Of a stretch of 45,721 nt of DNA, positions 21,994 through 41,153 are shown in pieces. The translations under genes and the position numbers were made by a program. The first letter of the stretch is position 1. Every line of letters begins with the position of its first letter. The notes below the pieces were generated by a model. It saw only the letters and a list, made by a program, of their open reading frames with translations, did no database searches and was not told the DNA's origin. Source of the stretch: a bacterium (GTDB lineage: Bacteria; Patescibacteriota; Minisyncoccia; Sungbacterales; SURF-37). The DNA lies in contig JAUSHI010000009.1 in assembly GCA_030648055.1 (NCBI GenBank), forward strand, positions 1 to 45,721, in the 5' to 3' direction.

Positions 21994-22050
21994 TTAAGCC
22001 GCAAATAACAACAAAAAATACCCCCGTCGGGGGGATTGTGAAAGCAGTTT

Positions 22051-22395
22051 TTATTTAACCGCTTCAACTATTTTTTTGAATATCTGCGGCTCTTTTTCGG
22101 CAAATTCCGCCAGAATTTTCCGGTCTAGTTCAATATTTTTCTTCTTTAACGCCGCTATAAATTTTCCGTAAGGCAGGCCATTTTCGCGCGAGGCGGCGTT
22201 AATTTGCACGTTCCATAATTTTCTAAAGTCGCGTTTTTTTAACTTCCGCGATTTGAATTGATACGCCCAGGCGTGAAGCACGGCTTCTTGGGCGGCGCGC
22301 GCTTTGGATTTTCTACCCCATTTAAATCCTCTGGTATGGCGAAGCAGGCGCTCTCTTTTTTTGTGGGCTATTGTTCCTCGTTTTACTCTGGTCAT
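22051..22395 (-). CDS. rplT: 50S ribosomal protein L20
   Basis: MTRVKRG...KKRDFRKLW...INAA...LDRKILA. Confidence 0.97.
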   Translation of the reverse strand: MTRVKRGTIAHKKRERLLRHTRGFKWGRKSKARAAQEAVLHAWAYQFKSRKLKKRDFRKLWNVQINAASRENGLPYGKFIAALKKKNIELDRKILAEFAEKEPQIFKKIVEAVK

Positions 22396-22449
22396 AAATT
22401 TTTTATTGAAATTACCGCGCGTTAAATTTTTGCGCCGCCCCCGCGTTTA

Positions 22450-22641
22450 TTATATTGACTGAAGGTAACGCTTCATCATTTTTCCGTATGTTCCTGTCAC
22501 TTCTACCTTTTCCGAATGGCGGCGTTGGGCCCGGCGCGACTCTTTGGCGTTAAAATGGTTCACGTGACTTTTCCGCCGAATGAGTTTTCCGGTTTTGGTT
22601 ATTCTGATGCGTTTTTGAATTGATTTATTTGGTTTATTCAT
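22450..22641 (-). CDS. rpmI: 50S ribosomal protein L35
   Basis: KRIRITKTGKL...H; located between infC and rplT. Confidence 0.92.
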   Translation of the reverse strand: MNKPNKSIQKRIRITKTGKLIRRKSHVNHFNAKESRRAQRRHSEKVEVTGTYGKMMKRYLQSI

Positions 22642-22763
22642 CCCATTAGAAGCAGGTCACGGTCTGCGCCTGTTGATTACTATATTGATGGTTTATAATT
22701 TTCTTTGTCATAATATTAATGATGCATAATATTTCCCGTACTGCGGCCGCGGCTTCTAACGGG
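22642..22763. mobile_element. Family A element inserted at the rpmI start codon
   Basis: Minus strand: ATGAAT|CCCGTTAGAAGC...GCTTCTAATGGG|ATGAAT; 122 bp. Confidence 0.85.
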
Positions 22764-23286
22764 ATTCATCGGCTTTTTTTGTTTGGGTTAGCCCGTGAAT
22801 AGTAACCGTAAATCCTTGCGGGCTTGATTTAATCGGCGCTTCTTTTTCGTGGCCCGGGATAAGCGCTAAAAATTCTTCAAATCTTTTTTTAGCGAAATCG
22901 CGATGCGCTTTTTCTCTGCCTCTTAAAACGATATCTATGCGGACTTTATTTCTGCCTTCTAAGAATTTTTTTGCCTGATTGGCGCGCATTTCAAGATCGT
23001 GCAGGCCGGTGGCATAGCCGATTCTCAGCATTTTGGTTTCAACCTCCTTTTGCTTTGAGCGGTGTTCGCGCTCGCCCCGTTCGCGCTCGTATTTGAATTT
23101 ACCGAAATCGGCGATTTTTACGACTGGCGGGTTGGCGGTCGGCGAGATCTCAATAACATCAAGACCGCGTTCCTGGGCGATTTTAAGTGCTTCCTCAATC
23201 GGCATGACGCCGAGTTGGCCCTTATCGTCAACCACTCTTACCGGGGAAAGCCGTATTTGTTGATTTATGCGGTAACGTTTTTGGAT
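22756..23286 (-). CDS. infC: Translation initiation factor IF-3, probable ATC start
   Basis: Frame extends upstream of GTG 23235 to give (I)QKRYRINQQIR..VRVVD. An in-frame TAA lies four codons before ATC 23286. PPVVKIADFGKFKYE and LRGRE are present. Confidence 0.93.
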   Translation of the reverse strand: MQKRYRINQQIRLSPVRVVDDKGQLGVMPIEEALKIAQERGLDVIEISPTANPPVVKIADFGKFKYERERGEREHRSKQKEVETKMLRIGYATGLHDLEMRANQAKKFLEGRNKVRIDIVLRGREKAHRDFAKKRFEEFLALIPGHEKEAPIKSSPQGFTVTIHGLTQTKKADESR

Positions 23287-23433
23287 AGTATAAAATTATT
23301 TATAATTTAAGATATGTAGGCAATATATGCGATTTATCGCTGGAAGTCAACACTGATCATGTTTAAGTTTGAAAATGAAAAAGCCGTCGATACACTGACG
23401 ACTTCTTCGTCGTGGTGTGTCGGCGGCGACCGC

Positions 23434-23991
23434 TTAGCGGTAGATGATGAGAAGAACCGTTATTTGTAGCGCGAGGAAACATATAGGCGTGAGTGCTCCA
23501 GCGATATTCCATTTCTTTATTGCCAGAACCCCGCATGCGCTACCTGCCACAATGAGAAGCCATGGAAGGGGCGGTTCGCGCCCTGGATCCGTCCAGACGC
23601 TGGTGATCGTTGGGATGGTGCCGATGGTGGTCGCCACGAGGCAGAGAACGATGAGGACGTTGGGCTCTTTCGAGATGGTCCAGAGCGCCACGGCGACGAT
23701 CACAATGGCGAAACAGGCGAAATCGAGCCGAGTCCATCCCATGGCCGCACCCTTCCAGACACTCGTCATGACGACGACGGCGGCACCGGTGATGTAGGCG
23801 ACCATCTGCCAGGCCATTTCGCCAGCGGCGATCACGCCGACGAGGATCGCTACATCCATGATCCCCCATGAAATCCAGGAGGAGATCGTTGGATGAGCAT
23901 CGCCGCTGAGCACGGATGCCGTGTACGGAACGTAGGCGACTGCAGAGAGTAGAAACGCCAGAGCGGTAAAGACGGACTTGTGATTTACCAT
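23434..23991 (-). CDS. Hypothetical multi-TM membrane protein (PQ-loop-like)
   Basis: AYVPY...PTISSW...IPTI...W.DP..EP pattern; SD GAGGAG; GC-rich; own promoter TTGACA-18-TACAAT (24075-24046). Confidence 0.7.
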   Translation of the reverse strand: MVNHKSVFTALAFLLSAVAYVPYTASVLSGDAHPTISSWISWGIMDVAILVGVIAAGEMAWQMVAYITGAAVVVMTSVWKGAAMGWTRLDFACFAIVIVAVALWTISKEPNVLIVLCLVATTIGTIPTITSVWTDPGREPPLPWLLIVAGSACGVLAIKKWNIAGALTPICFLALQITVLLIIYR

Positions 23992-24166
23992 GATTTACTC
24001 CTCTCTTCTTTTCGTTGGTGTTGGTTTGGCGGTTTGATTATGGTAATTGTACCACAACTATTAGCTATATGTCAATAGTAGAAATCAAAATAGCACGATT
24101 GTGCTGTTTTTTGATGCAAAATTTGGATGACCTTTAAATGGTTCGTCCAAAGTTCAGAATATCCCA

Positions 24167-24207
24167 TTTTATAAAACAACCGCTACTGTAGCGGTTGTTT
24201 TATAAAA
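24167..24207 (-). terminator. Terminator palindrome after ssrA
   Basis: TTTTATAAAACAACCGCTAC-T-GTAGCGGTTGTTTTATAAAA. Confidence 0.75.
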
Positions 24208-24699
24208 TGGAGGTGGTCGGAATTGAACCGGCGTCCGGACCATATTTTTCCAAGATGTACTACGAAGATATCTCCATTGGTGTTTCACCGAGCCGGTAAT
24301 AATGGAGCAAAAACCGGTTTGGATAAAGTTCGCTTTTTGTCGTCCCGATCCACGAACGAAAATTGGGACCAAGCTTTATGTATGACACCCGTGATCCTAA
24401 GTCATCATATTGCTTTCGCAATTTGATGACCGGACGATCAATCCCGCAAGCGGGATTGATTTAGTCTGCCTATTAAGCTTCGGCAGGCGGATGGTCTACG
24501 TGGCCGAACCGTTAGGTTCTAGGCTTAGGCGTAAACAGGAGCGAGCTTATCGTTGCCACCACCAAAAGCGGCCGCAAAGACATTACTCACTTTCGTAAAT
24601 AAGTTTGCACTTATTGTTGTGCCGATGATTTACGAGGATACGGCACCTCCTCGCCTCGCATCTTGAATTTTCAATGATTCGTCGAAGCCTTTCACCCCC
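24208..24699 (-). ncRNA. ssrA: tmRNA
   Basis: 5' GGGGGTGAAAGGCTTCGAC; 3' GACGCCGGTTCAATTCCGACCACCTCCA with G3-U70. Tag frame ANLFTKVSNVFAAAFGGGNDKLAPVYA* (24608-24525). Near smpB. Confidence 0.93.
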
Positions 24700-24769
24700 C
24701 TAGAACACCCAATCACGATTGGGTGTTCGGGCGAGCCCCCATTCAATAAACTAATAATTTGAGTGGGGC

Positions 24770-24823
24770 TTTAGCCTAAAATGTTCGGGCGATCAATCCC
24801 GCCTTGGCGGGATTGATTTAGCC
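24770..24823. repeat. Family C hairpin repeat
   Basis: TTTAGCCTAAAA..TCGGGCGATCAATCCCGC-CTTG-GCGGGATTGATTTAGCC; homologous to 28616-28672 and 24435-24464. Confidence 0.75.
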
Positions 24824-25075
24824 CTTTCTAAATTTTTTTATCAGATTTTTCTTAAATCTGCCAGCCCATAAACTTTTCAGAAATCTTTCTCGGTTAAAGG
24901 CCGCGCCTTTATTTTCGAAACTTTCTGAATGTATAATTGTAAACGGTCTTCGCGTACTAGTTGAACTAACTTTTCCAGAGTTGTGTTTTTGCAGTCTCTT
25001 TTTCAGGTTAGTAGTACATCCAGTATAGAGCTTGCCGTCTTTCCCGCTTAGCAATATATACACGAAATAGGGCAT
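24818..25075 (-). CDS. Small GIY-YIG nuclease
   Basis: MPYFVYILLSGKDGKLYTGCTTNLKKRLQKHNSG...ST..RRPF...RERFLKS. Confidence 0.9.
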   Translation of the reverse strand: MPYFVYILLSGKDGKLYTGCTTNLKKRLQKHNSGKVSSTSTRRPFTIIHSESFENKGAAFNRERFLKSLWAGRFKKNLIKKFRKG

Positions 25076-25076
25076 A

Positions 25077-25529
25077 TTAACCAATCTGATTTTTTATCGC
25101 GCGTTCTATTTTTCTTGCGTCTTCGCGTTCGCGAATCGCCTGGCGTTTATCGCGCCCTTGTTTGTGTCGCGCTAATGCCAGTTCTATCTTGATTCGCGAT
25201 TTCTTATCATACACCCGAATTGGCACTAAAGTCAAGCCCTTTTCGGCAGTTTTTCCTATCAGTTCTTTTATTTCCGATTTGTGGAGCAGTAATTTTCGCG
25301 AGCGGTCCGGGTCATAATTTGCCGGAGTGTTTTTTGCCTGGTATGGCGGAATTGAGGCGTTTATAAGCCAGGCCTCGCTACCCTTAATTACAACATAAGA
25401 CCCCGCGAGATTGACGCGGCCGTTTTTGATCGCTTTGACTTCAAAACCGAAAAGCTCAATCCCGGCCTCGTATTTTTCAAGGACCTCGTAATCAAAAAGC
25501 GCCCGTTTGTTGACTGAATATATTTTCAT
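25077..25529 (-). CDS. smpB: SsrA-binding protein
   Basis: NKRALFDY..LEKYEAGIELFGFEVKAIK, RSRKLLLHKSEI and DKRQAI. True start is ATG 25529; the extra N-terminus in the track derives from the repeat. Confidence 0.97.
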   Translation of the reverse strand: MKIYSVNKRALFDYEVLEKYEAGIELFGFEVKAIKNGRVNLAGSYVVIKGSEAWLINASIPPYQAKNTPANYDPDRSRKLLLHKSEIKELIGKTAEKGLTLVPIRVYDKKSRIKIELALARHKQGRDKRQAIREREDARKIERAIKNQIG

Positions 25530-25651
25530 CCCGTTAGAGATGGGAAATGCTTTAGGCATTCCCGTTTGTTGTGATATGTGGCTATGGTTTTTGACATGAT
25601 AATGTTGCTGAACGATTGTGCGGGCAAAGTAAAGCCCGGATCTTTAACGGG
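25530..25651. mobile_element. Family A element inserted at the smpB start codon
   Basis: Minus strand: ATGAAT|CCCGTTAAAGAT...ATCTCTAACGGG|ATGAAA; 122 bp. Confidence 0.85.
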
Positions 25652-25744
25652 ATTCATCTCTAATTCAAAGGTAGCACACGCTGGCTGTTTTTTGAAAAAG
25701 AAAAAACGAGGCATTGCCTCGTTTATTTTGTCTGCTGGTTTTTA

Positions 25745-26701
25745 TTAAGGCGAATTTCTGGTGTCGGTACGGCACAAACGGTCTCGTTCCGACTCAAGGA
25801 ATTTTCTGAAATCGGCAAATACTTTGTGCCGGCTTGCCGACTTTGTTGCGTCGAAGCGCCTGATTGCTTCTTCAAAAAAGCACTCAACTGTTCCTTGGAG
25901 ATTATCGTTTGCTAGTCGGTACTGATTTAACTCTCTCGTGCGGGCTTCAAATCCGGTGATTTCTTTCCGAAGTTCGCCAATGGCACGCGCCAAAACTTTT
26001 TCGCGCCAGCCGGATGTATCCTGGAACATGGATAGGAGCGTCGCGAGAGGACTTTGTAGTGTGTCAATCAATACAGTTTTCTCGTTTCCTTCAGTAAAAA
26101 TGAGTTCAACCATGGAGATATTGTTGTATTCTTTTCTCTCAAGGCGCAGTTCTGGGCTGTTGATAAGGTCATTATGCGCGTATGAGGTAAGGCGGCGCGG
26201 ATAGGTATAGTGCGTCGGCGAGAGAATTTTTAAGTTCGGATGTAATCTGCGAAGAGAGGGAAACCACTGCTTTTTGTAAAAAACAACCGGAACATCATCG
26301 CCTTCGGCGGTGACCAGCCAGAACCCGTAGTAGTTGTCAAAGCTCCAGTTTTCTCCAGTCCAATACGCGGGAAGGAGGAGCGCGGCGCAGTAGTATGAAA
26401 AGATATGGCGCGTCTCCCAGCGCATATGCTCATTGGGAACAAGAGATTTTTCTTCAGAAAGACTCACTACGCTGTCAGAATCAATCGCTTTGCCTCTGCT
26501 GTTGAAGTATGTTCTGGTGAGGCATACGCGGAGTATTGGTACCATGTTGAATTTGTAATGCGCGCCCCACATTTTTTGGAGATGAGGCCAATCTTTCGCG
26601 GGTTGCTCAAGGATAGCAGTATTCAACGAAAGTTTTGTTGAGACTCTTCCATTCAGGTCTCTTTTGAGCTCTTCAGGTTTAAGATTTTTTGACCAGCGCA
26701 T
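25745..26701 (-). CDS. Hypothetical protein with C-terminal coiled coil
   Basis: 318-aa ORF; SD GAGGAGG; promoter TTGACG-17-TATTTT (26923-26895); terminator near 25696-25725. Confidence 0.7.
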   Translation of the reverse strand: MRWSKNLKPEELKRDLNGRVSTKLSLNTAILEQPAKDWPHLQKMWGAHYKFNMVPILRVCLTRTYFNSRGKAIDSDSVVSLSEEKSLVPNEHMRWETRHIFSYYCAALLLPAYWTGENWSFDNYYGFWLVTAEGDDVPVVFYKKQWFPSLRRLHPNLKILSPTHYTYPRRLTSYAHNDLINSPELRLERKEYNNISMVELIFTEGNEKTVLIDTLQSPLATLLSMFQDTSGWREKVLARAIGELRKEITGFEARTRELNQYRLANDNLQGTVECFFEEAIRRFDATKSASRHKVFADFRKFLESERDRLCRTDTRNSP

Positions 26702-26963
26702 AACCCCTCCTCGGGCCTACGCTCGCGCTCTCGCCACCGTTCTCTCCTTGTCCGATTGCAAGCTTACGGCTTGCGACTTAGGACTTGCCAATGGAGACCT
26801 GTGAAAATGAGCCGAGTTTCGGAGCGCCACCACTTCTTTCGTCCCGGCGTCGTAGGACTTTTTTCTTCAGCGAATTTTCAACGAACTAGACCATAAAATA
26901 GCATTGTAAAATAACAGCGTCAAGTTCTTTTTAATTGTTCATTGATTCCAGTACACTAAAACC

Positions 26964-28565
26964 ATGGTTCGCGATGAAATAAAACATGCGGTTAGCACTA
27001 CTTTGCGGGAAATGTTTCCTGGAATCACTATTCCTGATTTTTCGGTTGAAGTTTCCGAAAGCGCGGAACACGGAGATTACGCGACGAATGCTGCGTTTCT
27101 TTTGGCTAAATTAGCAAAAAAAGCTCCGATGGAAATTGCCCAATTTCTTGTTCCTCAATTAATGGTTGACCCTTTTGAAAGGGTTGTGGCCTCACCCCCG
27201 GGCTTTCTTAATTTCTGGCTCACCGAAGAAGCGTTTCAAAAAGAATTAAAAGAAATTATCAAGAAAAATAATAAGTACGGAATGGGAAAAAAAATACAGG
27301 AAAAAATAAATTTGGAATTTGTTTCGGCCAACCCGACCGGCCTGCTCACCCTCGGCAACGGCAGAGGCGGGTTTTATGGCGACACGCTTGCCAATGTCCT
27401 TGAGTTCGCGGGCTTTAATGTGACCCGCGAATATTATGTGAACGACGGCAAGGTAAGTACGCAAATAAAAGAGCTTGGCAAGACCGGACTTGGGGAAGGC
27501 GTTACATATTTAACGCCGGAGCTCAAAAAGGTGGTTAAAAAACTAAAGAAAAAGATTGATGCCTTAAAAAAGAAACAGCCGAAAAATATAAGAGGCGAGG
27601 CGGGATATTTTATTGCCCAGGAAATTCATAAACAAAATAAAATTTTCCTTCAAAAGAAGGCAAAAATTAATTTTAACGTTTTCTTTTCGGAAGAACGGCT
27701 TTATCAAAAAAATGACGTTGATAAACTGCTTGCACTTTTGAAGAAAAAAAAGCTTGTCTACGAAAAAGAGGGCGCCACGTGGTTTGAGTCAAAAAAATTT
27801 GGAGATTCCGAAGACCGCGTGCTTGTGCGTTCCAGCGGTGAGCCGGCCTATTTCTTGCCTGACTTGGCGTACCACCTGAATAAGTTTTTTGCGCGGAAGT
27901 TCAACCGCGCCATTGATATATGGGGCGCGGACCATCATGGCTATGCCCAGCGGTTATCGGGCGCGCTTACCGCTCTTGAAGTTCCGGCAGGGAAATTAAA
28001 AATTATTATCACTCAGCTTGTGCGGCTTATCCGTAACGGAGTGGAGGTGAAAATGTCAAAGCGCAAGGGTGAATTTGTAACGCTTGAGGAAGTGATTGAC
28101 GAGGTTGGGGTGGACGCCGCGCGGTTTTTCTTTTTGATGTATTCTCCCGATTCGCACATGGATTTTGACTTGGAACTTGCCAAGGAGCGCTCGGTTAAAA
28201 ACCCTGTTTATTATGTTCAATATGCCCATGCGCGCATTATCAGTATTTTTAAAAAGGCAAAAAAACAAAAACTAGGCGTTGCAGATTTTTCGCTACTTAA
28301 AGAAAAAGAGGAGGTCTCGTTAATTAAAAAACTTATTCAATTTCCGGAAGCGGCCGAGGACGCGGCCCGGGATTATCAGGTTATGCGCCTTACGCGCTAT
28401 GCGATGGAGCTTGCGCGAAGTTTTCATAATTTTTATGAGAAAAATAGGGTGATAACCGAGGATAAAAATTTGACGGCAACACGCCTTCAGCTTGTAAAAG
28501 CAACTCAAATTGTATTGCAAAATGTTTTGGCGCTTTTAGGTATTTCAGCGCCCGAGAAAATGTAA
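26964..28565 (+). CDS. argS: Arginine--tRNA ligase
   Basis: HGDYATN, EFVSANPTG.LTLGNGR, WGADHHGY, KMSKRKG and YVQYAHAR. Confidence 0.97.
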   Translation: MVRDEIKHAVSTTLREMFPGITIPDFSVEVSESAEHGDYATNAAFLLAKLAKKAPMEIAQFLVPQLMVDPFERVVASPPGFLNFWLTEEAFQKELKEIIKKNNKYGMGKKIQEKINLEFVSANPTGLLTLGNGRGGFYGDTLANVLEFAGFNVTREYYVNDGKVSTQIKELGKTGLGEGVTYLTPELKKVVKKLKKKIDALKKKQPKNIRGEAGYFIAQEIHKQNKIFLQKKAKINFNVFFSEERLYQKNDVDKLLALLKKKKLVYEKEGATWFESKKFGDSEDRVLVRSSGEPAYFLPDLAYHLNKFFARKFNRAIDIWGADHHGYAQRLSGALTALEVPAGKLKIIITQLVRLIRNGVEVKMSKRKGEFVTLEEVIDEVGVDAARFFFLMYSPDSHMDFDLELAKERSVKNPVYYVQYAHARIISIFKKAKKQKLGVADFSLLKEKEEVSLIKKLIQFPEAAEDAARDYQVMRLTRYAMELARSFHNFYEKNRVITEDKNLTATRLQLVKATQIVLQNVLALLGISAPEKM

Positions 28566-28615
28566 AAAGCGAAGTGACGGCACGCGCTTTCCATTCGGCA
28601 TCGGGCCTTTTTTAT

Positions 28616-28672
28616 TTGATTTAGCCCTAAAAGTAATCGGGCGATCAATTCGCTGTGCGAATTGATTTAGCC
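28616..28672. repeat. Family C hairpin repeat
   Basis: TTGATTTAGCC...TCGGGCGATCAATTCGC-TGT-GCGAATTGATTTAGCC. Confidence 0.72.
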
Positions 28673-28691
28673 AGGAAAATTAGTATTATAA

Positions 28692-31600
28692 ATGAATATG
28701 TCGGCGGAAGATAAACAGCTGAATTTACCGCAACGAGAAGAAGAAATTCTCGCTTTTTGGGATAAAGAAAAGATTTTTGAGAAATCTCTTAAAAAAACGC
28801 GCCGCGGCAAGCTGTTTGTTTTTTACGAAGGGCCGCCAACCGCCAATGGCAATCCGGGCATACATCACTTTGAGGCGCGCGCTTTTAAAGATGTTATTCC
28901 GCGTTATAAAACAATGCGCGGATTTTTTGTACCAAGAAAAGCGGGATGGGACACACACGGCCTGCCCGTGGAGATTCAAGTTGAAAAAGAGCTCGGGCTA
29001 AAAACAAAAAAGGATGTTGAGCGCTATGGCATCGCTGAATTTAATGAAAAGTGCCGCGAGTCCGTATGGAGATATAAAGAAGAATGGGATCGCTTCACCC
29101 GCCGCATCGGGTTTTGGCTTGACCTTGCCCATCCTTATATTACTTACGAGACGCCGTATATAGAAACTCTTTGGTGGGTCACAAAAAAAGTTTGGGAAAA
29201 GAATTTACTTTATCAGGATTTTAAAACATTGCCGTGGTGCCCAAGATGCCAGACCGGACTCTCAACGCATGAGCTTGGCATGCCGGGAGCGTATAAAAAA
29301 ACAAAAGACGATTCGGTATTCGTTCGTTTTCGGATAAAGGGCAAGCCCAAAGAATCGCTTTTGATATGGACGACAACGCCATGGACGCTTTCCGCCAACG
29401 TTGCCATAGCGGCAAATCCGCAAATAGAATACACGAAGTGGAAAATAGGCGACGAATATGTGTGGTCGGCAACTACGCCTCCTTATGATTCTAAGGGCGC
29501 CAAGCCGAATATAGTTGAAAAAATTTCCGGCAAGGCGTTGATTGGTATGGAGTATGAACCGATTTATACGCCGGAACTTGATGTGAAAATCAAAACAGCG
29601 GTTCCTTATAAAGTGGTTGGGGCTGATTTTGTGGAGACTAATGAGGGAACCGGCTTCGTGCATTTAGCGCCCGCGTTCGGCGAGGAAGATTTGCAGACGA
29701 TAAAAAAAGAATATGGCGCGAAATATCCGATTCTTGAAACGGTGGAGTTGGATGGCACAATGAAAAAGGGAGTAATCGGCGAAGGAAAGCCCGTAAGGAA
29801 TGCGAACACCGCTGTTATTGAGGACTTGAAAAAACGCGGACTGCTTTTTTGGCTTTTGCCGTACGAGCACGAGTATCCACATTGCTGGCGGTGCGATACG
29901 CCTTTGATCTATTACGCAAAAAATTCGTGGTGGATTCGCATGACGGCGTTGAAAAAAGAACTTATAGCTAATAACCAAACGATTGATTGGGTTCCGGAAC
30001 ACATAAAAGACGGTCGTTTCGGGGAATTTCTGCGGGAAGTGCGCGATTGGGCATTTTCTCGCGAAAGATATTGGGGCACGCCTCTTCCGGTATGGGAGTG
30101 TTCAGTTTGTCATTCTCTTGATGTAATCGGTTCTATTGATGAGCTTGCTTCCCGCGCGACGAGGTCGGGAAATACATATATTGCGATGCGCCACGGCCAG
30201 TCGGAAACCCAGCTTCTTGGAATTGCCGCGGACAGCGACTCAAAATATCACTTGACCGATAAAGGTAGAAAACAGGCGGAGCGCGCCGCGGAAAAATTAA
30301 AAAAAGAAAAAATTAACGTCATAATTTATTCCGATGTTTTACGCACAAAAGAGACTTCCCAAATTGTTGCCAGAATTTTAGGCGTGGAAATGGTTGTTCC
30401 GGACCGGCGCATTCATGAATTGAATGTTGGCATTTTTGACGGCAGGCCAACCAAAGAATATCACGATTTTTACCGATCAATGGAAGAAAAATTTGTTAAG
30501 CCGGTGCCCGAGGGCGAATCTTTGAGTGATTTGAAAAAACGGGTGATGGATTTTATGCGCGAAACCGATGAAAGGTTTAAGAACAAAAAAATTCTTATTA
30601 TAAGTCATGAATATCCGATCTGGATTCTTGACGGCGCCTCTAGGGGATTGGATGCGGGAGGGATTATTGCTCTCCGTGGTAAAAAGGATGACTACATCGG
30701 GCTTGCTCAGACAATGCGCATTCCGTTTCTCCGTCTCCCAAGGGACGCAAGGGGTAGCGTGGATTTGCATCGCCCGCATATTGATTCGTTTGAAATTCCT
30801 TGCAATAAGTGTAATGGCATGATGAAGCGCGTTTCCGAAGTAATTGACGTGTGGTTTGATTCTGGTGCTATGCCTTTCGCTCAAACGCATTTTCCATTTG
30901 ATAAAAAAGAAAAACTATATTATCCGGCAGACTACATTTCCGAGGCGGTAGATCAGACAAGGGGATGGTTTTACACTCTTCTTGCCGTAGCCACACTTCT
31001 TGGCCGGGGCGCTCCATATCGTCATGTAATTTCGCTTGGTCATGTGCTTGATAAAAACGGTCAGAAGATGTCCAAGTCAAAGGGTAATGTTGTAAACCCA
31101 CAGGAGATGATTCAAAAATATGGAGCAGATACGATTCGGTGGTATTTCTATACCATCAACCCGCCCGGCGAGCCGAAACGTTTTGATGAAAAAGATTTGG
31201 GAAACAAGCCCCGCGGAACGCTCGCAACGTTTTGGAATAGTTTCGTATTTTTTGATACTTACGTTGAGAAAGTGAATCTTGGAAGCGGAAAGCGGCCGAA
31301 ATCTAAAAATATTATGGACAGGTGGGTACTCGCGCGCCTTGATGAAATTGTTTTAGCGGTTACCGATTGTCTGGAGAAATACGACATTACCGGGGCGGCG
31401 AGGATTCTTGATTCTTTTATTGTTGAGGATTTTTCGCGCTGGTATTTGCGGCGTTCCAGAAGAAGATTTCAGAAGCCGGAAACAAAAGAGGAAAAAGACG
31501 AGGCGGCTTCGGTTATGGGGTACGCGCTTTTAACGCTTGTCTCGCTTTTCGCGCCGTTTACTCCGTTTCTGTCTGAAGTGGTTTGGAGAGAGTTGAGAAA

Positions 31601-32168
31601 AAAGACGGGCGCAAAGGATGCAAGTATTCATTTGAAATCATGGCCCAAGGCGGAAAAAATTGGAGAAAGAGAAAAAATAATTCTTTCAAACATGAAAACT
31701 GCTCGCGAGCTGGCCACACTTGCTCTGGCTGAAAGAGCGAAGGCGGCCCTCAGGGTGCGCCAGCCATTGTCACTTCTTGAAATTCCCAAAGCATCTTTTC
31801 AGAATTTGGACAAAGATACGCTGGGTATTATCAAAGACGAAGTGAATGTTAAAAATATTTTCTCGGGTGAAATCTTGCGGCTTGATATCGTGCTTACACG
31901 TGAGCTTACCGAGGAGGGCTGGGTTCGCGAGATTCTTCGCAATGTTCAGGAGATGCGCAAAGAGTTGGGATTTCATCCCACGCACCGGATGCGGCTTCAG
32001 GTGGTAGGCAACTCTGAATTTGATGACATCATCGGGCGATGGAAGGCATTTATAGTTAAAGAGGCCGGAGCTAAGTTGATAGTTATTGGCGGCAAAAAGA
32101 TTTTTAAAATTGAGCGTGAGTTTTCTCTTGATGGGCGCGAGGTGTGGGTAGGTGTTGATAAAATATAA
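28692..32168 (+). CDS. ileS: Isoleucine--tRNA ligase (type 2) with an inserted histidine phosphatase domain
   Basis: EGPPTANGNPGIHH, GWDTHGLP, WTTTPWTL, SRERYWG and KMSKS; RHG domain at about 30165-30730. Confidence 0.96.
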   Translation: MNMSAEDKQLNLPQREEEILAFWDKEKIFEKSLKKTRRGKLFVFYEGPPTANGNPGIHHFEARAFKDVIPRYKTMRGFFVPRKAGWDTHGLPVEIQVEKELGLKTKKDVERYGIAEFNEKCRESVWRYKEEWDRFTRRIGFWLDLAHPYITYETPYIETLWWVTKKVWEKNLLYQDFKTLPWCPRCQTGLSTHELGMPGAYKKTKDDSVFVRFRIKGKPKESLLIWTTTPWTLSANVAIAANPQIEYTKWKIGDEYVWSATTPPYDSKGAKPNIVEKISGKALIGMEYEPIYTPELDVKIKTAVPYKVVGADFVETNEGTGFVHLAPAFGEEDLQTIKKEYGAKYPILETVELDGTMKKGVIGEGKPVRNANTAVIEDLKKRGLLFWLLPYEHEYPHCWRCDTPLIYYAKNSWWIRMTALKKELIANNQTIDWVPEHIKDGRFGEFLREVRDWAFSRERYWGTPLPVWECSVCHSLDVIGSIDELASRATRSGNTYIAMRHGQSETQLLGIAADSDSKYHLTDKGRKQAERAAEKLKKEKINVIIYSDVLRTKETSQIVARILGVEMVVPDRRIHELNVGIFDGRPTKEYHDFYRSMEEKFVKPVPEGESLSDLKKRVMDFMRETDERFKNKKILIISHEYPIWILDGASRGLDAGGIIALRGKKDDYIGLAQTMRIPFLRLPRDARGSVDLHRPHIDSFEIPCNKCNGMMKRVSEVIDVWFDSGAMPFAQTHFPFDKKEKLYYPADYISEAVDQTRGWFYTLLAVATLLGRGAPYRHVISLGHVLDKNGQKMSKSKGNVVNPQEMIQKYGADTIRWYFYTINPPGEPKRFDEKDLGNKPRGTLATFWNSFVFFDTYVEKVNLGSGKRPKSKNIMDRWVLARLDEIVLAVTDCLEKYDITGAARILDSFIVEDFSRWYLRRSRRRFQKPETKEEKDEAASVMGYALLTLVSLFAPFTPFLSEVVWRELRKKTGAKDASIHLKSWPKAEKIGEREKIILSNMKTARELATLALAERAKAALRVRQPLSLLEIPKASFQNLDKDTLGIIKDEVNVKNIFSGEILRLDIVLTRELTEEGWVREILRNVQEMRKELGFHPTHRMRLQVVGNSEFDDIIGRWKAFIVKEAGAKLIVIGGKKIFKIEREFSLDGREVWVGVDKI

Positions 32169-32765
32169 ATGTACGTTACTGACGCTATTATTCTAAAAAA
32201 AGAACCGGTGGGTGAAGCCGATGTGCTCGTGACCGCGCTTACTGATCGCTTCGTCAGAATTCGGCTTGTCGCGCAAGGGGCGCGCAAGGTCGGCGCCAAG
32301 CTCAAGGGTCACCTTGAGCCGTTGTCTCTTTCGCGGTTTTCTTTTGTCGTGGGAAGGAAAAATTATCGCCTGATAGGCGCGGAACTTCAGGATTTTTTTC
32401 CGATAATTAAAAATGAACCCGAGCGTTTTCGCGTCGCAACGGAAATTGCGTCAGTTTTAGACAGCGTTCTTTTTGAAGATGTTGCCGAAAAGAACGGTAA
32501 TTTTTTTGCCATCGCTCATGAAGCGCTTAAATTTATTAATGAGCCGTTAAATTCCATAAAGGATTGCGAGCTGGCGTTTCTTTGGTTTAGAACACAATTT
32601 TTACGGGAGTCGGGCCTTCTTCCTGAAAATGCGGAGGAGTTATTTGTTGCGAAAGGGGGCGAATATACGCCCTGCGGCGATTTTGTGTCGCTTTGCGGCG
32701 AGCCGCAAGCATTAAGGCTTAGAGAGTCTATCTCACAGATTTTTAGAGAATACTTACCCCGTTAG
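32169..32765 (+). CDS. recO: DNA repair protein RecO
   Basis: AIILKK..VGEAD...AQGARK..AKLKGHLEP. Confidence 0.85.
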   Translation: MYVTDAIILKKEPVGEADVLVTALTDRFVRIRLVAQGARKVGAKLKGHLEPLSLSRFSFVVGRKNYRLIGAELQDFFPIIKNEPERFRVATEIASVLDSVLFEDVAEKNGNFFAIAHEALKFINEPLNSIKDCELAFLWFRTQFLRESGLLPENAEELFVAKGGEYTPCGDFVSLCGEPQALRLRESISQIFREYLPR

Positions 32766-32793
32766 AACAGCCTTCTGTGTTATAATAAAAAGC

Positions 32794-34695
32794 ATGGTGA
32801 CACTTGAAGAATTGCGCCGTAAGCTTTATGGCCCGAAAGAGCCCGAAAATAAGGGCGGGCCAAGGGATATTGCTCGTGAGTATGGCAAAGGAACGGACGA
32901 AGAGCCGAAGAAATTTTGGAACACAACTGAAATAAAGATATTGAAGAAAACAATCAAAGAACATAAAACAAGCCGCTTGCTCGCCAATATCATTATTTTT
33001 TCTCTTGTTCTTCTTTTTGGGCTAGGTGTTTATATAGCGTATGAGATCTTTTTTGTTCAGGAAGAAGTTAATTTGACGATTGCCGGTCCGGACGGGGTTG
33101 AAACCGGCGAGCGCACTGATTTCGTGGCTCTCATTAAAAATACCGGCAAGATCGCCCTGTATGATGTTGAGCTTAATATTACTTACCCCGAGCACACCAT
33201 TGCCGTTGCCAACACCGGCGAGGCAAAAGGAGTAGCCAGAGAAAAAATTACTTTTGATAAAGTTTTACCGGGCGAAGAGGTGAAATACGACATCTCGGTG
33301 AAATTTTTTGGCAAGATCGGGGACGAAGAAACGCTTACCGTGCTCATAATTTATCGCCCCGAGAACATACAAAGCCGCCTTATAAAAAAAACCGACTTTA
33401 CTACCCATATCGCGCGCTCGCCTTTTGTTATAACGCTTTCTTCGCCAGAGGAAATTTCACAGAACCAGCGCATTGAACTGTCATTTCAAATAAATTCGGA
33501 GGCAAAGGTTATTATGGCGAATACTTCATTCAGGGCGGACTATCCCAGCGGGTTTGATTTTGAGTCAGCCGAGCCGAGTCCTGGTTTTGAAAACAATATT
33601 TGGTTTTTGGGGGATTTTGCTGCTGGCGACTCAAAGAAAATTACCATTCGCGGAACGATTCACGGACAACCTGAGGAGGTGAAGTCGTTCAACGGCGTTT
33701 TTGGACAATATAATCAGGCGACCAAGGAGTGGCTGGTGTTTCTTGAAGAGGCTAAGGGACCGAAAATCGCCTCACCCTTTCTTTTTGTCCGTCAGGACAT
33801 AAACGGGAAAAGAGAAGGAACAGTTAATGGTGGGGAGGGCGTGCGCTTTACCATATTTTATAAAAATAATCTTTCAAAAAAAATAAATGATATCGTTATT
33901 TCCGAGAAAGTTTCGGAAGACGTTTTAAATCTCAATACTTTGAGAGTTGATAGTGGCGCTTACGATCCGGTTGCTCACGAGATACGCTGGACTGGGGCAA
34001 CATTGTCGGAGTTAAAGGATGTTGGTCCGGGCGTGTCTGGGACGGTCAGTTTTTACGCAAATTTAAGGCCTTCACCGCCGCTAAAAAGCTTCTCTGATAA
34101 AAATTTTGTATTGGCCGCAAAAGCGGTAATTGATACCAAAAACATTCCTGAGGAATTTAGCGGAGTAAAACTTCGTTATGAAGATAATTTAGAGTTTAAA
34201 ATAAATACGAAATTAACGCTGAACACGCGCGTTGTTTATTTTGATTCGCCCGTTAAAAATACCGGGCCTCTTCCACCAAAAGTGCGGAAGGAAACAACTT
34301 ATACCATTATTTGGCAGCTCGCTAATCAGTCTAATGACGCTACAGCCGTTGAGGTTAAAGGCGGCTTGCCAGCGAATGTGAAGTGGCTCGGGACGGTGGG
34401 TGATGTTCCGGGGGTCGCGATGTTCAACAGCGCTTCAAATGAAATTGTGTGGAATATTCCAAGGGTAAGTGCTGGCACAGGCATTTTAAAGCCGCAGGCG
34501 ACACTTATTTTCAGAGTTGCTCTTGTTCCGGGCGAGGACCAAACAGGCACCTCGCCAGTCTTGGTGTCCCGTATTATCGCCGACGGCGCAGACAGTTTTA
34601 CAGGTGAAAAACTTCACGACGAAAAAGAGGATATTGTAACAGTTCTTGATACCGACACTACGCGCGATTTTGATCAATGGCGTGTTGTGCCGTAG
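32794..34695 (+). CDS. Membrane-anchored surface protein with multiple Ig-like beta-sandwich domains
   Basis: Single TM; repeated Y/IKNTG, W.LG and GPLPPKV...TTYTIIW motifs. Confidence 0.7.
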   Translation: MVTLEELRRKLYGPKEPENKGGPRDIAREYGKGTDEEPKKFWNTTEIKILKKTIKEHKTSRLLANIIIFSLVLLFGLGVYIAYEIFFVQEEVNLTIAGPDGVETGERTDFVALIKNTGKIALYDVELNITYPEHTIAVANTGEAKGVAREKITFDKVLPGEEVKYDISVKFFGKIGDEETLTVLIIYRPENIQSRLIKKTDFTTHIARSPFVITLSSPEEISQNQRIELSFQINSEAKVIMANTSFRADYPSGFDFESAEPSPGFENNIWFLGDFAAGDSKKITIRGTIHGQPEEVKSFNGVFGQYNQATKEWLVFLEEAKGPKIASPFLFVRQDINGKREGTVNGGEGVRFTIFYKNNLSKKINDIVISEKVSEDVLNLNTLRVDSGAYDPVAHEIRWTGATLSELKDVGPGVSGTVSFYANLRPSPPLKSFSDKNFVLAAKAVIDTKNIPEEFSGVKLRYEDNLEFKINTKLTLNTRVVYFDSPVKNTGPLPPKVRKETTYTIIWQLANQSNDATAVEVKGGLPANVKWLGTVGDVPGVAMFNSASNEIVWNIPRVSAGTGILKPQATLIFRVALVPGEDQTGTSPVLVSRIIADGADSFTGEKLHDEKEDIVTVLDTDTTRDFDQWRVVP

Positions 34696-34722
34696 ACGTG
34701 TTATTATTTTAACTTCATGAAT

Positions 34723-34840
34723 CCTGTTAGAGATCCAAATGTTATGTATTGCAAACAGCTTAAAATATATCTTAAAAAGCCGAGTCGTTTGTTATCCGTC
34801 GTTAACCAACGGAAATCTTTGATTTCCTATTTCTAACAGG
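34723..34840. mobile_element. Family A element inserted at the glyQS start codon
   Basis: ATGAAT|CCTGTTAGAGAT...ATTTCTAACAGG|ATGAAG; 118 bp; compensatory C>T/G>A change in both arms. Confidence 0.85.
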
Positions 34841-36223
34841 ATGAAGTCTCAAGAAAATCCGCTGATGGAAAAAATTATGTCGCTTGCCAAGCGCAGGGGG
34901 TTTATATTTCAAGGTTCGGAAATTTACGGTGGTCTTGCGGGCACATGGGACTACGGTCCGATGGGTGCTCTTTTAAAACAAAACATTAAACGCGAGTGGT
35001 GGCGGATGTTTGTTACTCTGCGGGAAGACATGTACGGTGTTGATACGGCGATTTTGATGAACGAGAAAGTGTGGGCGGTCTCCGGGCATATTAAAAATTT
35101 TGTTGACCCGATGGTTGATTGCAAGAAATGCAAAATGCGGTATCGGGCGGATAAATTAGCTGGGGTCACTATTACTCCCACGAAGCATCAAGAATCAAAT
35201 GTAAATAGTTATTTTATTGAAGGATGGGAAAATATTGAATGTCCGAATTGCCATACAAAAGGCGACTGGACTGCGGTGCGTCCGTTCAACATGATGTTCA
35301 AAACCCACGTCGGGCCGGTGGAGGACACTTCCGCGGAAACGTATCTTCGTCCGGAGACCGCGCAGGGCATGTTTGTTAATTTTAAAAATGTGCTTGATTC
35401 CATGCATCCGAAACTGCCTTTTGGAATGGCGCAAATAGGCAAGGCGTTTAGAAATGAAATTACGCCGGGAAATTTTATTTTCCGCACGCGGGAATTTGAG
35501 CAGATGGAAATTGAATATTTTATAAGGGCCGAAGAATGGGAAACGCAATTTGAATATTGGCAAGCTCAAATAAAATCTTGGCTCGCGCATATCGGAATTG
35601 CGAATGGGGTGCATGAGCGCGAGGTGCCCAAAGAGGAGAGAGCGCACTATTCACAGAGAACCGTGGATATTGATTTTGATTTTCCGTTTGGCCGCGAAGA
35701 ATTATACGGCCTTGCGTATCGGGGAGATTTTGATTTGAAAAATCACACTGAAAAATCCGGCGTTTCGCTTGAGTATTTTGATGAAGAGATAAAGAAAAAG
35801 TTTATTCCTCACGTAATTGAGCCGACTTTTGGGGTGGATAGGACCGTTTTAGCCCTTCTGGCCTCGGCTTTTAGCGAGGAAGAAGACAAAGACGGGATGC
35901 GAATAGTATTAAAATTATCTCCACGCGTCGCGCCTTTTACAGCCGCTGTGTTTCCACTGCTTGCCAATAAGCCCGCGCTTATTGACAAAGCAAAGGATAT
36001 ATTTCATAATTTAAATACGCATTTCTCCGCGGCTTGGGACGACATAGGCAATATCGGCAAGCGTTATCGCCGACAGGACGAGATCGGCACGCCGTGGTGC
36101 GTTACCGTGGACTTTCAGACGCTTGAAGACGAGACGGTAACTGTTCGCGACAGGGATACGATGAAACAGGAGCGGATTCCACTTAAAGAGCTGGTTCAGT
36201 ATTTTTCAGAGAAATTAAAATAA
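34841..36223 (+). CDS. glyQS: Glycine--tRNA ligase (alpha2 type)
   Basis: KRRGF...IYGG, YLRPETAQG, FRNEITP, REFEQME and IGKRYRRQDEIGTP. Confidence 0.97.
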   Translation: MKSQENPLMEKIMSLAKRRGFIFQGSEIYGGLAGTWDYGPMGALLKQNIKREWWRMFVTLREDMYGVDTAILMNEKVWAVSGHIKNFVDPMVDCKKCKMRYRADKLAGVTITPTKHQESNVNSYFIEGWENIECPNCHTKGDWTAVRPFNMMFKTHVGPVEDTSAETYLRPETAQGMFVNFKNVLDSMHPKLPFGMAQIGKAFRNEITPGNFIFRTREFEQMEIEYFIRAEEWETQFEYWQAQIKSWLAHIGIANGVHEREVPKEERAHYSQRTVDIDFDFPFGREELYGLAYRGDFDLKNHTEKSGVSLEYFDEEIKKKFIPHVIEPTFGVDRTVLALLASAFSEEEDKDGMRIVLKLSPRVAPFTAAVFPLLANKPALIDKAKDIFHNLNTHFSAAWDDIGNIGKRYRRQDEIGTPWCVTVDFQTLEDETVTVRDRDTMKQERIPLKELVQYFSEKLK

Positions 36224-36228
36224 ATAGT

Positions 36229-37500
36229 ATGTTCAAAAAAGAAGTTCTTCCGAGCGGACTCCGCATATTAACGGCCCCGATGAGCGGTACCAATACCGTA
36301 ACGGTTTTGATTTTTGTCGGCACCGGTTCTAACTTTGAAACTAAACAAAATAATGGCATTTCGCATTTTTTGGAGCACATGTTTTTTAAGGGCACTACGC
36401 TTCGTCCTTCAAAAGTGCAGATTTCAACCGAGCTTGATGGCATGGGTGCGGTCTATAACGCTTTTACTTCAAGCGAGTATACGGGTTATTTTGCCAAAGT
36501 GGGGTATCAGTATTTTGACCGGGCCTTTGATATCGTTACCGATATTTTTTTGAACTCAACTCTGCCCGATGAAGAAATTGAACGCGAACGGGGGGTGATT
36601 ATTGAGGAAATGCATATGCGCCACGACGACCCGCAGTCGCGGGTAGCGTTTCTTTGGGAGAAATTGCTTTACGGAGACCAGCCGGCCGGATGGGAGACGC
36701 TTGGCGAGGAGCCGGTTATCCGCGTGTTGAAGCGAAATGATTTCATGGATTATTTCCACGGTCAGTATGTTGCGCGAAACACCGCGGTAATCGTCGCCGG
36801 CAATATCAAAGACGAACAGGCGGTGGTTGAAAAAATAAAAAAGACTTTCTCCGGTCTTCGTGATGGCGAGCCGCGGAAACAGCCAAAAGTTGTTGAAGCG
36901 CAAGTTCGCCCTGGGATTATTAGTGAGGACAAAAAAACGGATCAGACCAACCTTATTATCGGGTTTCGTGGTTTTGGAAAGAATGATCCGCGGATATGGC
37001 CGGCCTCCCTTCTTGCTACGGTTCTTGGAGGAGGAATGAGTTCAAGAATGTTTTTGGAGATTCGTGAAGAGTTGGGGCTTGCTTACAATATCAGCACCGG
37101 TTTTGACGATTACAGCACTTACGGATATTTTGCGACTGGAGCCGGAGTTCCCAATGATAAGTTGGACAAAGCCATTCCGGCAATTTTAGGAGAGTATAAA
37201 AAGGTAAGAGACGAGGTGGTCCCCCAAAGTGAACTTAATAAGGCCCGTGATTTCGTTAAAGGCACGAGCTTAATAGGCCTTGAATCCTCTTCGTCTCTGG
37301 CTACGTTTATAGGTGGCGAGGAAATTCTTACCGGAAAGCCGATGACTATTGAAGAAGTATTTGCTAAACTGGACGCAGTAACACCCGAATCGCTCCAGGC
37401 CGCCGCCAGGGATATAATTAAAGAAGAGGGGCTGAATTTGGCGCTGGTTGGCCCCAAGAATGATGAAAAAAACTTAAAGAAGCTTCTCGTACTTTCGTAA
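36229..37500 (+). CDS. M16 family zinc peptidase
   Basis: GISHFLEHMFFKGT (HxxEH), NAFT and GGGMSSRMF.EIRE. Confidence 0.93.
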   Translation: MFKKEVLPSGLRILTAPMSGTNTVTVLIFVGTGSNFETKQNNGISHFLEHMFFKGTTLRPSKVQISTELDGMGAVYNAFTSSEYTGYFAKVGYQYFDRAFDIVTDIFLNSTLPDEEIERERGVIIEEMHMRHDDPQSRVAFLWEKLLYGDQPAGWETLGEEPVIRVLKRNDFMDYFHGQYVARNTAVIVAGNIKDEQAVVEKIKKTFSGLRDGEPRKQPKVVEAQVRPGIISEDKKTDQTNLIIGFRGFGKNDPRIWPASLLATVLGGGMSSRMFLEIREELGLAYNISTGFDDYSTYGYFATGAGVPNDKLDKAIPAILGEYKKVRDEVVPQSELNKARDFVKGTSLIGLESSSSLATFIGGEEILTGKPMTIEEVFAKLDAVTPESLQAAARDIIKEEGLNLALVGPKNDEKNLKKLLVLS

Positions 37501-37509
37501 AAATAATTT

Positions 37510-38565
37510 ATGCCCGTAAAACAGATTCAAAAAATAGATGTTACACTTGGAACATTTCTCCGATTTTTTGCCGTGGCGATTTTGATTTTTCTTGCTTATT
37601 ATCTTTTGCAAATGATCGCGGCTATACTTTTTGCCATCGTTATCGCCTCAGCCATTGAGCCGATTATTAACTGGTTAGGCCGGCGCCATGTTTCACGCAT
37701 TATCACCGTTATACTGATTTATCTTTTTGCGGCTATGGTTTTTGCGGGGTTGGTTTATCTTGTTTTACCGGCAGTCGCGACCGAATTGCAGAATTTTATT
37801 TCTTCATATCCGATTTATCAGCGCGAGCTTCTCAGTGAAATCCAAGCAGTAACAGGCATTCCGCTACTTAGTTTTTTGTCGGATAATTCGCAGAGCATTT
37901 TAATTTCATCCCCCGACCAGCTGACCCAGCTTGCCCAGAGTACATTTCAGTTAACGATTAATGTTTTTGGAGGATTGATGCTGGCGATTATAACGGCAGT
38001 TATCTCTTTTTATCTTGCCACGCAAAAAAATGGGATTGAAAATTTTTTGCGGCTTGTCACACCTCTTGAGTATGAGGAATACGCGGTTGACCTTTGGATA
38101 AGGGCGCAGAAAAAAATGGGACAGTGGTTGCGAGCCCAGCTTATTCTCGGCCTCATTGTCGGTGTTTTAGTTTATATCGCCTTAACACTTCTTGGCATAC
38201 GCTTCGCGCTTATATTTGCGGCACTTACCGCTATTCTTGAAATTATACCGGTTATCGGGCCTATTCTTGCCGCGGTACCCGCGGTAGTCATTGCTTTTGT
38301 ACAGAGCCCCGTTTTGGGTCTCACCGTTATTGTGACTTATTTCATTATTCAGCAAATTGAAAGTCACTTAATAGTTCCGACCGTGATGCGGAGAACTGTT
38401 GGATTGAATCCTCTCGTGGTTATTTTAGCGCTTCTTATCGGCGGAAAGCTCGGCGGAGTGTTGGGACTTCTTTTGGCCGTTCCCCTAGCCAGCGTCGTGG
38501 TTGAATTTTTGAGCGATACTGACAGAAAAAAGCGCGGCCTTTTTCAATACGGCGGAGGCAGTTAA
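37510..38565 (+). CDS. AI-2E family transporter
   Basis: EIIPVIGP and QQIESHLIVP...GLNPL motifs. Confidence 0.9.
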   Translation: MPVKQIQKIDVTLGTFLRFFAVAILIFLAYYLLQMIAAILFAIVIASAIEPIINWLGRRHVSRIITVILIYLFAAMVFAGLVYLVLPAVATELQNFISSYPIYQRELLSEIQAVTGIPLLSFLSDNSQSILISSPDQLTQLAQSTFQLTINVFGGLMLAIITAVISFYLATQKNGIENFLRLVTPLEYEEYAVDLWIRAQKKMGQWLRAQLILGLIVGVLVYIALTLLGIRFALIFAALTAILEIIPVIGPILAAVPAVVIAFVQSPVLGLTVIVTYFIIQQIESHLIVPTVMRRTVGLNPLVVILALLIGGKLGGVLGLLLAVPLASVVVEFLSDTDRKKRGLFQYGGGS

Positions 38566-38638
38566 AATTTCCAAGAAGTACAATTTTTATGTAAGATAGA
38601 AAGGGTTTACGCCCTTTTTATTAATAGGCTATAAAACA

Positions 38639-40114: not shown

Positions 40115-40115
40115 T

Positions 40116-41018: not shown

Positions 41019-41054
41019 TATAAAAATAAAATCCCCGGATAGGGGATTTTTCAT

Positions 41055-41150
41055 CCCCACACCCAGAAGACGCAAGCATTCAGATTGTGGGCAATGGGCG
41101 GGCCAAAAAGTAATTTTAAAAAATGCCCAGCCTTTGGGCTGGGTGTGGGG
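41055..41150. mobile_element. Family B inverted-repeat element without coding cargo
   Basis: CCCCACACCCAG ... CTGGGTGTGGGG, a perfect 12-bp inverted repeat. Confidence 0.65.
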
Positions 41151-41153
41151 GGT

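Follow-up and report, generated by a model that had tools for sequence, protein, structure and literature searches.

The smpB gene of this bacterium begins directly behind a small mobile element which, as judged from its sequence, is a new member of a family of inverted-repeat elements that encode a GIY-YIG nuclease and insert into start codons. We propose that a non-autonomous copy of this very small element inserted at the TGAA of smpB's own ATGAA start. The gene would natively be transcribed from an extended -10 promoter, giving a near-leaderless mRNA without a Shine-Dalgarno (SD) sequence. In full-length elements the nuclease frame runs through both terminal repeats and takes its stop TGA from the element's last A and the duplicated TGA, so that the end of the nuclease gene always coincides with the restored ATG of the host. 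In the smpB copy the central part of this gene was probably lost without a frame shift, and a relic of 43 codons remains. The native promoter would still fire, with transcription beginning at the old site. Ribosomes may then load on the 5'-proximal old AUG, as on leaderless mRNAs, melt the terminal stem holding the A and U of the smpB AUG while translating the relic frame, terminate at the UGA and re-initiate on the overlapping smpB AUG.

We give this account as a whole, from the insertion and the native start through the relic frame to termination-reinitiation on smpB, a probability of roughly 55%. Its part on insertion and ancestry is highly probable, and the odds that coupling is the main route of smpB expression seem about even.

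Organization of the smpB locus

The window, that is the whole stretch of 45,721 nucleotides that was analysed, is contig C5:1-45721 of a genome assembly of 614 kb in nine contigs, which is 85% complete. Its features around the smpB start are:

25704..25724, minus strand: terminator-like hairpin with T-run; 9-bp stem with five G-C pairs, then TTTCTTTTTC; ends the upstream gene 25745-26701
25668..25676, minus strand: extended -10 box TGCTACCTT, native smpB promoter, from its position and the comparison with relatives
25655..25657, minus strand: native smpB start codon ('captured' ATG), now the start of the upstream open reading frame (uORF), from the comparison with relatives
25653..25656, minus strand: upstream TGAA copy of the 4-bp target duplication, from the flanks ATGAAT / core / ATGAAA
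25529..25652, minus strand: non-autonomous element, 124 nt including the terminal T...A pair, with inverted ends TCCCGTTAAAGATC and GATCTCTAACGGGA
25530-25651, minus strand: element core, 122 nt, CCCGTTAAAGA to TCTCTAACGGG, from the inverted ends
25526..25657, minus strand: uORF of 43 codons plus TGA, N-terminus MNPVKD, C-terminus LKHFPSLTG*; relic of the element's GIY-YIG frame
25557..25559, minus strand: element-internal ATG in the smpB frame, from the list of open reading frames; would add ten residues, MPKAFPISNG; an unlikely start, as the relatives' N-termini align to MKIY
25542..25563, minus strand: inner hairpin GGGAATGC-CTAAA-GCATTTCCC, counterpart, in collapsed form, of an inverted repeat which in full-length copies lies on both sides of the central part of the nuclease gene
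25525..25528, minus strand: downstream TGAA copy of the duplication; rebuilds the ATG with the element's last A and supplies the uORF stop TGA
25077..25529, minus strand: smpB, 150 codons plus stop, intact; PF01668, E 3e-52

Read along the minus strand, the order around the insertion is ...gtgTGCTACCTTtgaattagagATGAAT-CCCGTTAAAGATCC...CCCATCTCTAACGGG-ATGAAAATA..., and the terminator-like hairpin (25724-25704) sets the upstream gene (25745-26701) apart from the smpB promoter. A preliminary description of this DNA had reported a 43-codon frame from the ATG at 25657 with a TGA overlapping the smpB ATG. Its coordinates and description are correct: the peptide is MNPVKDPGFTLPAQSFSNIIMSKTIATYHNKRECLKHFPSLTG (43 codons, MNPVKDPG...FPSLTG), and the TGA at 25528-25526 overlaps the smpB ATG at 25529-25527 within GGGATGA. 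The extended -10 that it placed about 10 nt before the upstream ATG is found as TGCTACCTT at 25676-25668, with a gap of exactly 10 nt, and the smpB start is indeed regenerated, its ATGAA consisting of the element's last A and the duplicated TGAA. By our own estimate, an arbitrary 122-nt insert would rarely hold an open 43-codon frame ending on ATGA, with a chance of about 1/3 x 0.1; among the short ATG-bearing copies of the element family such frames are common (27 of 154).

The flanks ATGAAT and ATGAAA fit a 4-bp TGAA duplication plus a terminal T...A pair, and the same flanks recur at six other copies in the genome. The terminal inverted repeats of the family are CCCGTTAGA...TCTAACGGG; the right arm of the smpB copy matches exactly, and the left arm, CCCGTTAAA, has one mismatch. 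When the contigs of three DNA runs were compared with window positions 22000-41999, no joint skipping 25530-25651 was found.

In the predicted RNA fold of the smpB element the two ends pair (dG -45.5 kcal/mol, z -3.3; one of 200 shuffles folded as well), and the terminal stem takes in the A and U of the smpB AUG. Inspection of the 16 nt before the ATG at 25529 revealed no SD-like tetramer.

Just downstream of smpB lies the tmRNA gene (24205-24699, minus strand; Rfam RF00023, 114 bits, 495 nt). Since the Rfam model matches the tmRNA where ARAGORN gave none, the blank of ARAGORN is a miss. With smpB intact and its tmRNA partner adjacent, the cell can be expected to need this gene.

Between the smpB stop and the tmRNA gene we also noted an 84-aa GIY-YIG gene (24818-25072, minus strand; PF01541, E 4e-15) without CCCGTTAGA ends. 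Of a 22-nt direct repeat, one copy (24426-24447) falls within the tmRNA match and the other (24781-24802) directly follows the GIY-YIG gene; these features may be the mark of another cassette. The tmRNA match is followed closely on its 3' side by a perfect palindrome of 23 nt around a 1-nt centre (24164-24210).

The native start of smpB

A search with SmpB gave matches in 40 of the 41 genomes of the family and order, in a comparison set without a same-genus genome, and the best match was 72% identical. We compared the smpB loci of 29 relatives upstream of the start. A TAnnnT hexamer ends 5-13 nt before the smpB ATG in 22 of them, 15 of these being TG-extended, and three further relatives carry TGCTA or TGATA slightly more distant, as seen by eye. 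An SD-like tetramer precedes smpB in only one of the 29. The closeness of the -10 to the ATG in 22 relatives, together with the single SD-like motif, indicates that smpB is natively near-leaderless. The SmpB N-termini at the 29 loci align to MKIYSVNKRA, and none of these loci has the element's repeat directly before the smpB start codon.

In the window, too, the -10 ends 10 nt before the ATG at 25657 and an SD motif is absent, as in the 22 relatives. Because the arrangement of TGCTACCTT, 10 nt and ATG is preserved at the upstream ATG, both the former start and the promoter belonging to it are intact. The proposal that the insertion captured the native start thus stands: the upstream ATG keeps the geometry of the relatives, in which TGnTAnnnT ends 9-11 nt before the ATG. 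The transcript is predicted to begin 2-5 nt before the ATG at 25657. On leaderless mRNAs, 5'-terminal AUGs are used for initiation.

The uORF descends from a GIY-YIG nuclease gene

An exact scan for ATGAATCCCGTTAGA in one genome per species yielded at least 125 loci, which we refer to as the upstream-anchored sample. Among the matches listed, nearly all loci belong to Patescibacteria, and 100 of 128 matches have the far repeat within 320 nt. Two of the copies are long, L039 with 284 nt and L096 with 281 nt. In both, the frame from the captured ATG runs for 94-95 codons, MNPVRD...KRFLSLTG*, to a TGA overlapping the host ATG, and both frames belong to the GIY-YIG family (PF01541, E 1e-17 and 2e-15). 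Against NCBIfam, the parent nuclease matched nothing but a group I intron endonuclease, and this below the threshold.

A protein search with the parent nuclease found 3320 homologues at E <= 1e-5. Among the best 120 of these, 76 start with MNPVRD and 11 with MSPVRD, and 104 end in LSLTG; 81 have 95 aa, and 10 have 86 aa and start at an internal Met. From these starts and ends it follows that NPVRD is the translated left repeat and LSLTG* the translated right repeat, with the stop coming from the duplication. Full-length copies of 268-284 nt (about 278) carry the same inverted repeats and a single gene, which encodes a GIY-YIG nuclease of 86-95 aa.

The smpB element resembles L039 at both termini, with 27 of 30 nt matching at the 3' end and 23 of 30 at the 5' end (alignment counted by eye). 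Its uORF peptide has the ends MNPVKD and FPSLTG*, where the nuclease has MNPVRD and FLSLTG*. The presence of both nuclease ends, the L039-like termini and the equivalent of the inner hairpin identify the uORF as the relic of an in-frame internal deletion. The insertion had been described as creating the uORF; this wording has to be corrected, since what remains as the uORF is the element's own GIY-YIG nuclease gene in a decayed state, and not a frame produced by chance. In Pfam the 43-aa peptide has no match, which makes the smpB copy a non-autonomous derivative.

The family also has very short members of about 27-48 nt (L048, L071, L094, L273 and L283), which consist essentially of the two repeats only. 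These read in frame into the host protein and add an N-terminal MNPVR...SNG.

Stop/start overlap across the family

In a second, downstream-anchored sample the upstream ATG was not required. Here, TCTAACGGGATGA was found in 109 of 401 genomes of the class, and the reversed control gave about five matches in all. From the 410 places, 150 were listed, eight near contig ends were left out, and 142 places in 140 loci were kept. Among these places listed, 123 of 142 have the near repeat, 101 have a downstream frame of at least 50 codons, and 64 of these 101 elements show the ATGAAT flank.

All ten long copies of this sample (268-280 nt) have an intact nuclease frame that ends at the overlapping TGA, and hence the 3' overlap is universal in gene-carrying copies. 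At the other end, the nuclease frame is open back to the upstream 6-mer in five of the ten, and three of these five have an ATG there; use of the captured ATG by the nuclease frame is frequent, not universal. The stop-on-start overlap, seen in the preliminary description at smpB, proved to be a fixed feature of full-length elements, as it occurs in all ten of these copies and in both long upstream-anchored copies, in line with the LSLTG ends of 104 of the best 120 homologues. Coupling to the host gene accordingly has the appearance of a design feature of the element family.

Retention of the bridging frame in short copies

It had been anticipated that the first stop in the captured-ATG frame would be enriched at the distal arm. 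Within this genome, the first stops of the eight copies with an upstream ATG lie at -177, -7, -92, -77, +1 (smpB), -7, -75 and -41 relative to the downstream ATG. Three of the eight frames are open to the far arm, whereas five stop early, and only smpB ends on ATGA. Across the family about 42% of the frames are open, compared with 14-18% in controls, while 58% stop early. The outcome for the anticipated enrichment is mixed.

In the upstream-anchored sample, 15 of 100 copies were left out because they had no start codon, no frame of 50 codons or less than 60 nt of flank. Among the 85 copies kept from the matches listed, the frame is open to the far arm in 39, against 13.9 +/- 3.1 expected from dinucleotide shuffles; for the two remaining inner forward frames the numbers are 12 and 13. 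In the 91 short copies of the downstream-anchored sample, open frames occur in 28 of 72 with an upstream start codon versus 1 of 19 without (p 0.005); under a broader definition the relation between open frame and ATG retention weakens to 25 of 69 versus 4 of 25 (p 0.078). The age of the element could also produce this link.

We pooled both samples with the genome's own copies and de-replicated the resulting 191 short copies at 72% identity into 145 clusters; clustering at 60% merged 60 of 85 copies and was discarded. Counted by cluster, open frames number 59.2 for the captured-ATG frame, compared with 24.4 and 26.6 for the two other forward frames, 37.6, 22.3 and 29.4 for the three reverse frames and 19.7 for the shuffles. 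Among 154 short ATG-bearing copies, 27 frames end on ATGA, 28 on a TAA 7 nt upstream, nine fuse in frame and 90 stop early; when the 64 open copies were examined for joining in frame to the host protein, only eight did so. The stop positions are not random: the far arm has 2-3 times more of them than expected, and few frames fuse with the host protein. Coding ancestry and shared descent of the copies, rather than selection, can explain the excess of open frames. With 90 of 154 frames stopping early, the bridging frame is not obligatory.

At the rpmI gene (L35), the copy at window positions 22642-22763 (minus strand) contains a frame of 17 codons with its stop 77 nt short of the restored ATG, so translation of rpmI must do without a bridge.

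In the 154 copies, -10-like hexamers ending 6 or 7 nt before the captured ATG were counted 24 and 15 times, respectively, over a background of about 4-5 per offset. SD-like motifs are found at 15 of 85 captured starts among the matches listed. Together, the excess of -10 hexamers at 6-7 nt and the few SD-like motifs indicate that many hosts are truly leaderless. Open frames are not significantly commoner behind promoters of the leaderless type (22 of 44 versus 42 of 110, p 0.21), and we found no significant association between open frames and SD-bearing leaders (p 0.18).

Translation of smpB behind the element

The smpB AUG now lies inside a transcript, lacks an SD motif and is half paired in the terminal stem. 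The gene itself is intact, and the only promoter-like site found by a promoter scan of the smpB strand has its -10 inside smpB codons 3-4. These facts together argue for some route of the proposed kind. ATGA overlaps support termination-reinitiation, and re-initiation on smpB after translation of the uORF is a plausible mechanism for this arrangement.

The strongest alternative is that the uORF and the ATGA arise automatically from the sequence of the repeat, from the TGAA duplication and from the length of the element (2 mod 3). Ribosomes would then start independently, without an SD, at the AUG at 25529; a stem-opening ribosome or a helicase might help, and termination-reinitiation would play no part. 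We consider this unlikely, though it accounts for several observations. The 90 of 154 short ATG-bearing copies (58%) whose frame stops early end it 15-268 nt before the host ATG, and their hosts include rpmI, a family member of the class II aminoacyl-tRNA synthetase type and others. In 19 of 91 short copies the upstream start codon has been lost altogether, and in two of three frames the right repeat brings a stop to 7 nt or less from the host ATG, whatever the function. SD-like motifs are so rare (15 of 85 captured starts, 1 of 29 smpB starts) that SD-less initiation must be routine. What this reading would leave unexplained is that, after de-replication, open frames from the captured ATG outnumber those in the other forward frames about 2.3-fold, and that in-frame fusions are so scarce (8 of 64) among open copies. 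Moreover, the native near-leaderless mode of initiation cannot apply to an smpB AUG that is internal, SD-less and half in a stem.

Much less probable is a new 5' end, produced by transcription from inside the element or by a cut in the stem (e.g. by RNase III), so that a short-leader or leaderless smpB mRNA bypasses the uORF. The ends of the smpB element form an interrupted stem of 13-15 bp, and other subfamilies in the genome have longer arms and, by eye, TATAAT-like strings in AT-rich centres. RNase III cleavage of the long terminal stem has been reported for Correia elements. The promoter scan, however, found nothing in the interior of the smpB copy that resembles a promoter for expression from the smpB ATG, its single match having the -10 within the coding region; inspection of the right repeat likewise gave no TAnnnT hexamer at 5-8 nt from the ATG, and cleavage is pure conjecture.

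A start at the second ATG within the element, at 25559, is very improbable: it lies in the smpB frame and opens a listed frame of 160 aa, but it has no SD-like motif, sits in the inner hairpin and would give SmpB ten additional N-terminal residues encoded by the element's repeat, whereas all 29 relatives start within a few residues of MKIY.

Returning to termination-reinitiation as the preferred reading, we can tentatively extend it to the family, at rather less than even odds. An element of about 278 bp with coding repeats would borrow the promoter and start of its host and obtain its stop from the duplication, so that the host gene becomes a second cistron. After decay of the nuclease, selection might keep a stop-free bridge where near-leaderless hosts can be reached only by relayed ribosomes.

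Comparison with known systems

The closest published system that we found is that of the Ssn nucleases (SsnA of Neisseria meningitidis; Chenal et al. 2025, PMC11893778), single-domain GIY-YIG proteins associated with NTS/SRM hairpin repeats, whose authors remark on the IS-like layout NTS-ssnA-NTS. As in the Ssn system described there, the sole protein of the element is a single-domain GIY-YIG nuclease of about 90 aa, and the gene is bracketed by short inverted or hairpin repeats, many of which also occur gene-free. Unlike in the Ssn system as described there, the smpB-element family has true terminal inverted repeats that are themselves coding, a 4-bp duplication, and insertion at start codons and -35 boxes. 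The published SRM motif (PMC11893778) has no match in the smpB element, L039 or L096. In the text of PMC11893778, Patescibacteria and start codons have zero occurrences each. A nuclease of the Ssn system would belong to CDD family cd10448 and cut single-stranded DNA beside its hairpin; for the parent nuclease of our element, membership in PF01541 is shown. In our whole genome the SRM motif gave one match, equal to the shuffle. A full-text literature search retrieved no paper on GIY-YIG inverted-repeat elements at start codons and nothing specific on leaderless translation in Patescibacteria.

Bacterial MITEs that are co-transcribed with neighbouring genes include the Correia elements (CREE) of Neisseria, ERIC and RUP. 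Like these, the smpB element has about 120 nt, terminal inverted repeats, a short target duplication, no own gene and many copies, and folds into a hairpin within the host mRNA. In form it is a classical MITE, with inverted repeats, a short duplication, fewer than 300 bp and no own open reading frame; it departs from the class in its parent, as all 12 long copies encode only a GIY-YIG protein and no DDE transposase. Unlike MITEs, it targets the start codon itself, which is rebuilt, and its relic frame bridges the old and the new start. Readings of the ends as IS200/IS605-like, IS110-like or integron attC-like were dropped because both flanks carry the duplication and the long copies encode GIY-YIG only.

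As in known cases of coupling by termination-reinitiation, the uORF stop overlaps the main start, the main gene is SD-less and its AUG is partly paired. The upstream frame differs from those cases in being the remnant of a mobile-element gene, not a host gene or an evolved leader peptide, and the initiating AUG is the former near-leaderless start of the host gene.

The solved structure nearest to the nuclease of the full-length element is PDB 1zg2 (BH0048, UPF0213; E 1.9e-8). Minimal GIY-YIG proteins of the UPF0213 / YhbQ type are encoded by separate genes of the cell, for which neither terminal repeats nor mobility have been described, and in contrast to these the smpB copy encodes no nuclease.

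Our data provide new comparative evidence for a natively near-leaderless smpB, and a controlled family-wide test of the bridging frame with its limits. If the relay works, a selfish element can land on a housekeeping start codon in a 0.6-Mb genome and the host survives, as the element exploits the host promoter and start for its own gene and then hands the ribosome over. The relay would offer a model for translation start in ultra-small Patescibacteria, in which we see near-leaderless genes and few SD motifs, as well as for DNA movement by single-domain GIY-YIG nucleases. For annotation, the family accounts for many 95-aa 'GIY-YIG' or 'excinuclease' calls starting with MNPVRD and for short spurious open reading frames before real genes.

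Other copies of the element in the genome

Searching for pairs of the 9-mer at a spacing of 60-400 nt, with no more than one mismatch in each arm, gave 24 combinations, nested and chance pairs among them; of 23 intervals from this search, 17 were analysed. Two types of flank were found. Elements with ATGAAT / core / ATGAAN lie directly on the starts of real genes, the hosts by Pfam being L35 at 22641, a class II aminoacyl-tRNA synthetase at 34841, RsmA, LigT and others. Those with NTTGAC / core / GTTGAC lie directly on -35 boxes. Both types are consistent with a duplication of 4 bp, which is TGAA, TTGA or CTTG, and one further base pair at the termini. Three copies have lost the upstream ATG and carry TTTAAT, ATTAGT or ATAAAT in its place.

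At the copy 6196-6312 (plus strand), which sits on a -35 box, TTGACA-N17-TATAAT is rebuilt downstream. Further copies on -35 boxes are located in the window at 41769-41883 (plus strand), followed by a truncated second copy at 41944-42065, and elsewhere in the genome (G000) at C2:48331-48449 and C3:4720-4941. At C1:8531-8874 (minus strand), two elements of 118 and 219 nt stand head to tail on one start codon with ATGAAT before each, which suggests repeated insertion into a rebuilt target.

The 85%-complete assembly contains seven GIY-YIG matches, none with CCCGTTAGA ends, a result that does not imply the absence of a cognate nuclease. The closest of the seven, at C4:23029-23316 (minus strand), is 63% identical and has the variant ends CCCGTACGAAAT. 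It is a full-length GIY-YIG element of a sister lineage, and its nuclease frame holds an in-frame 29-nt mini-hairpin made up of the two repeats only (...NDPVRNFLFRTGRL...).
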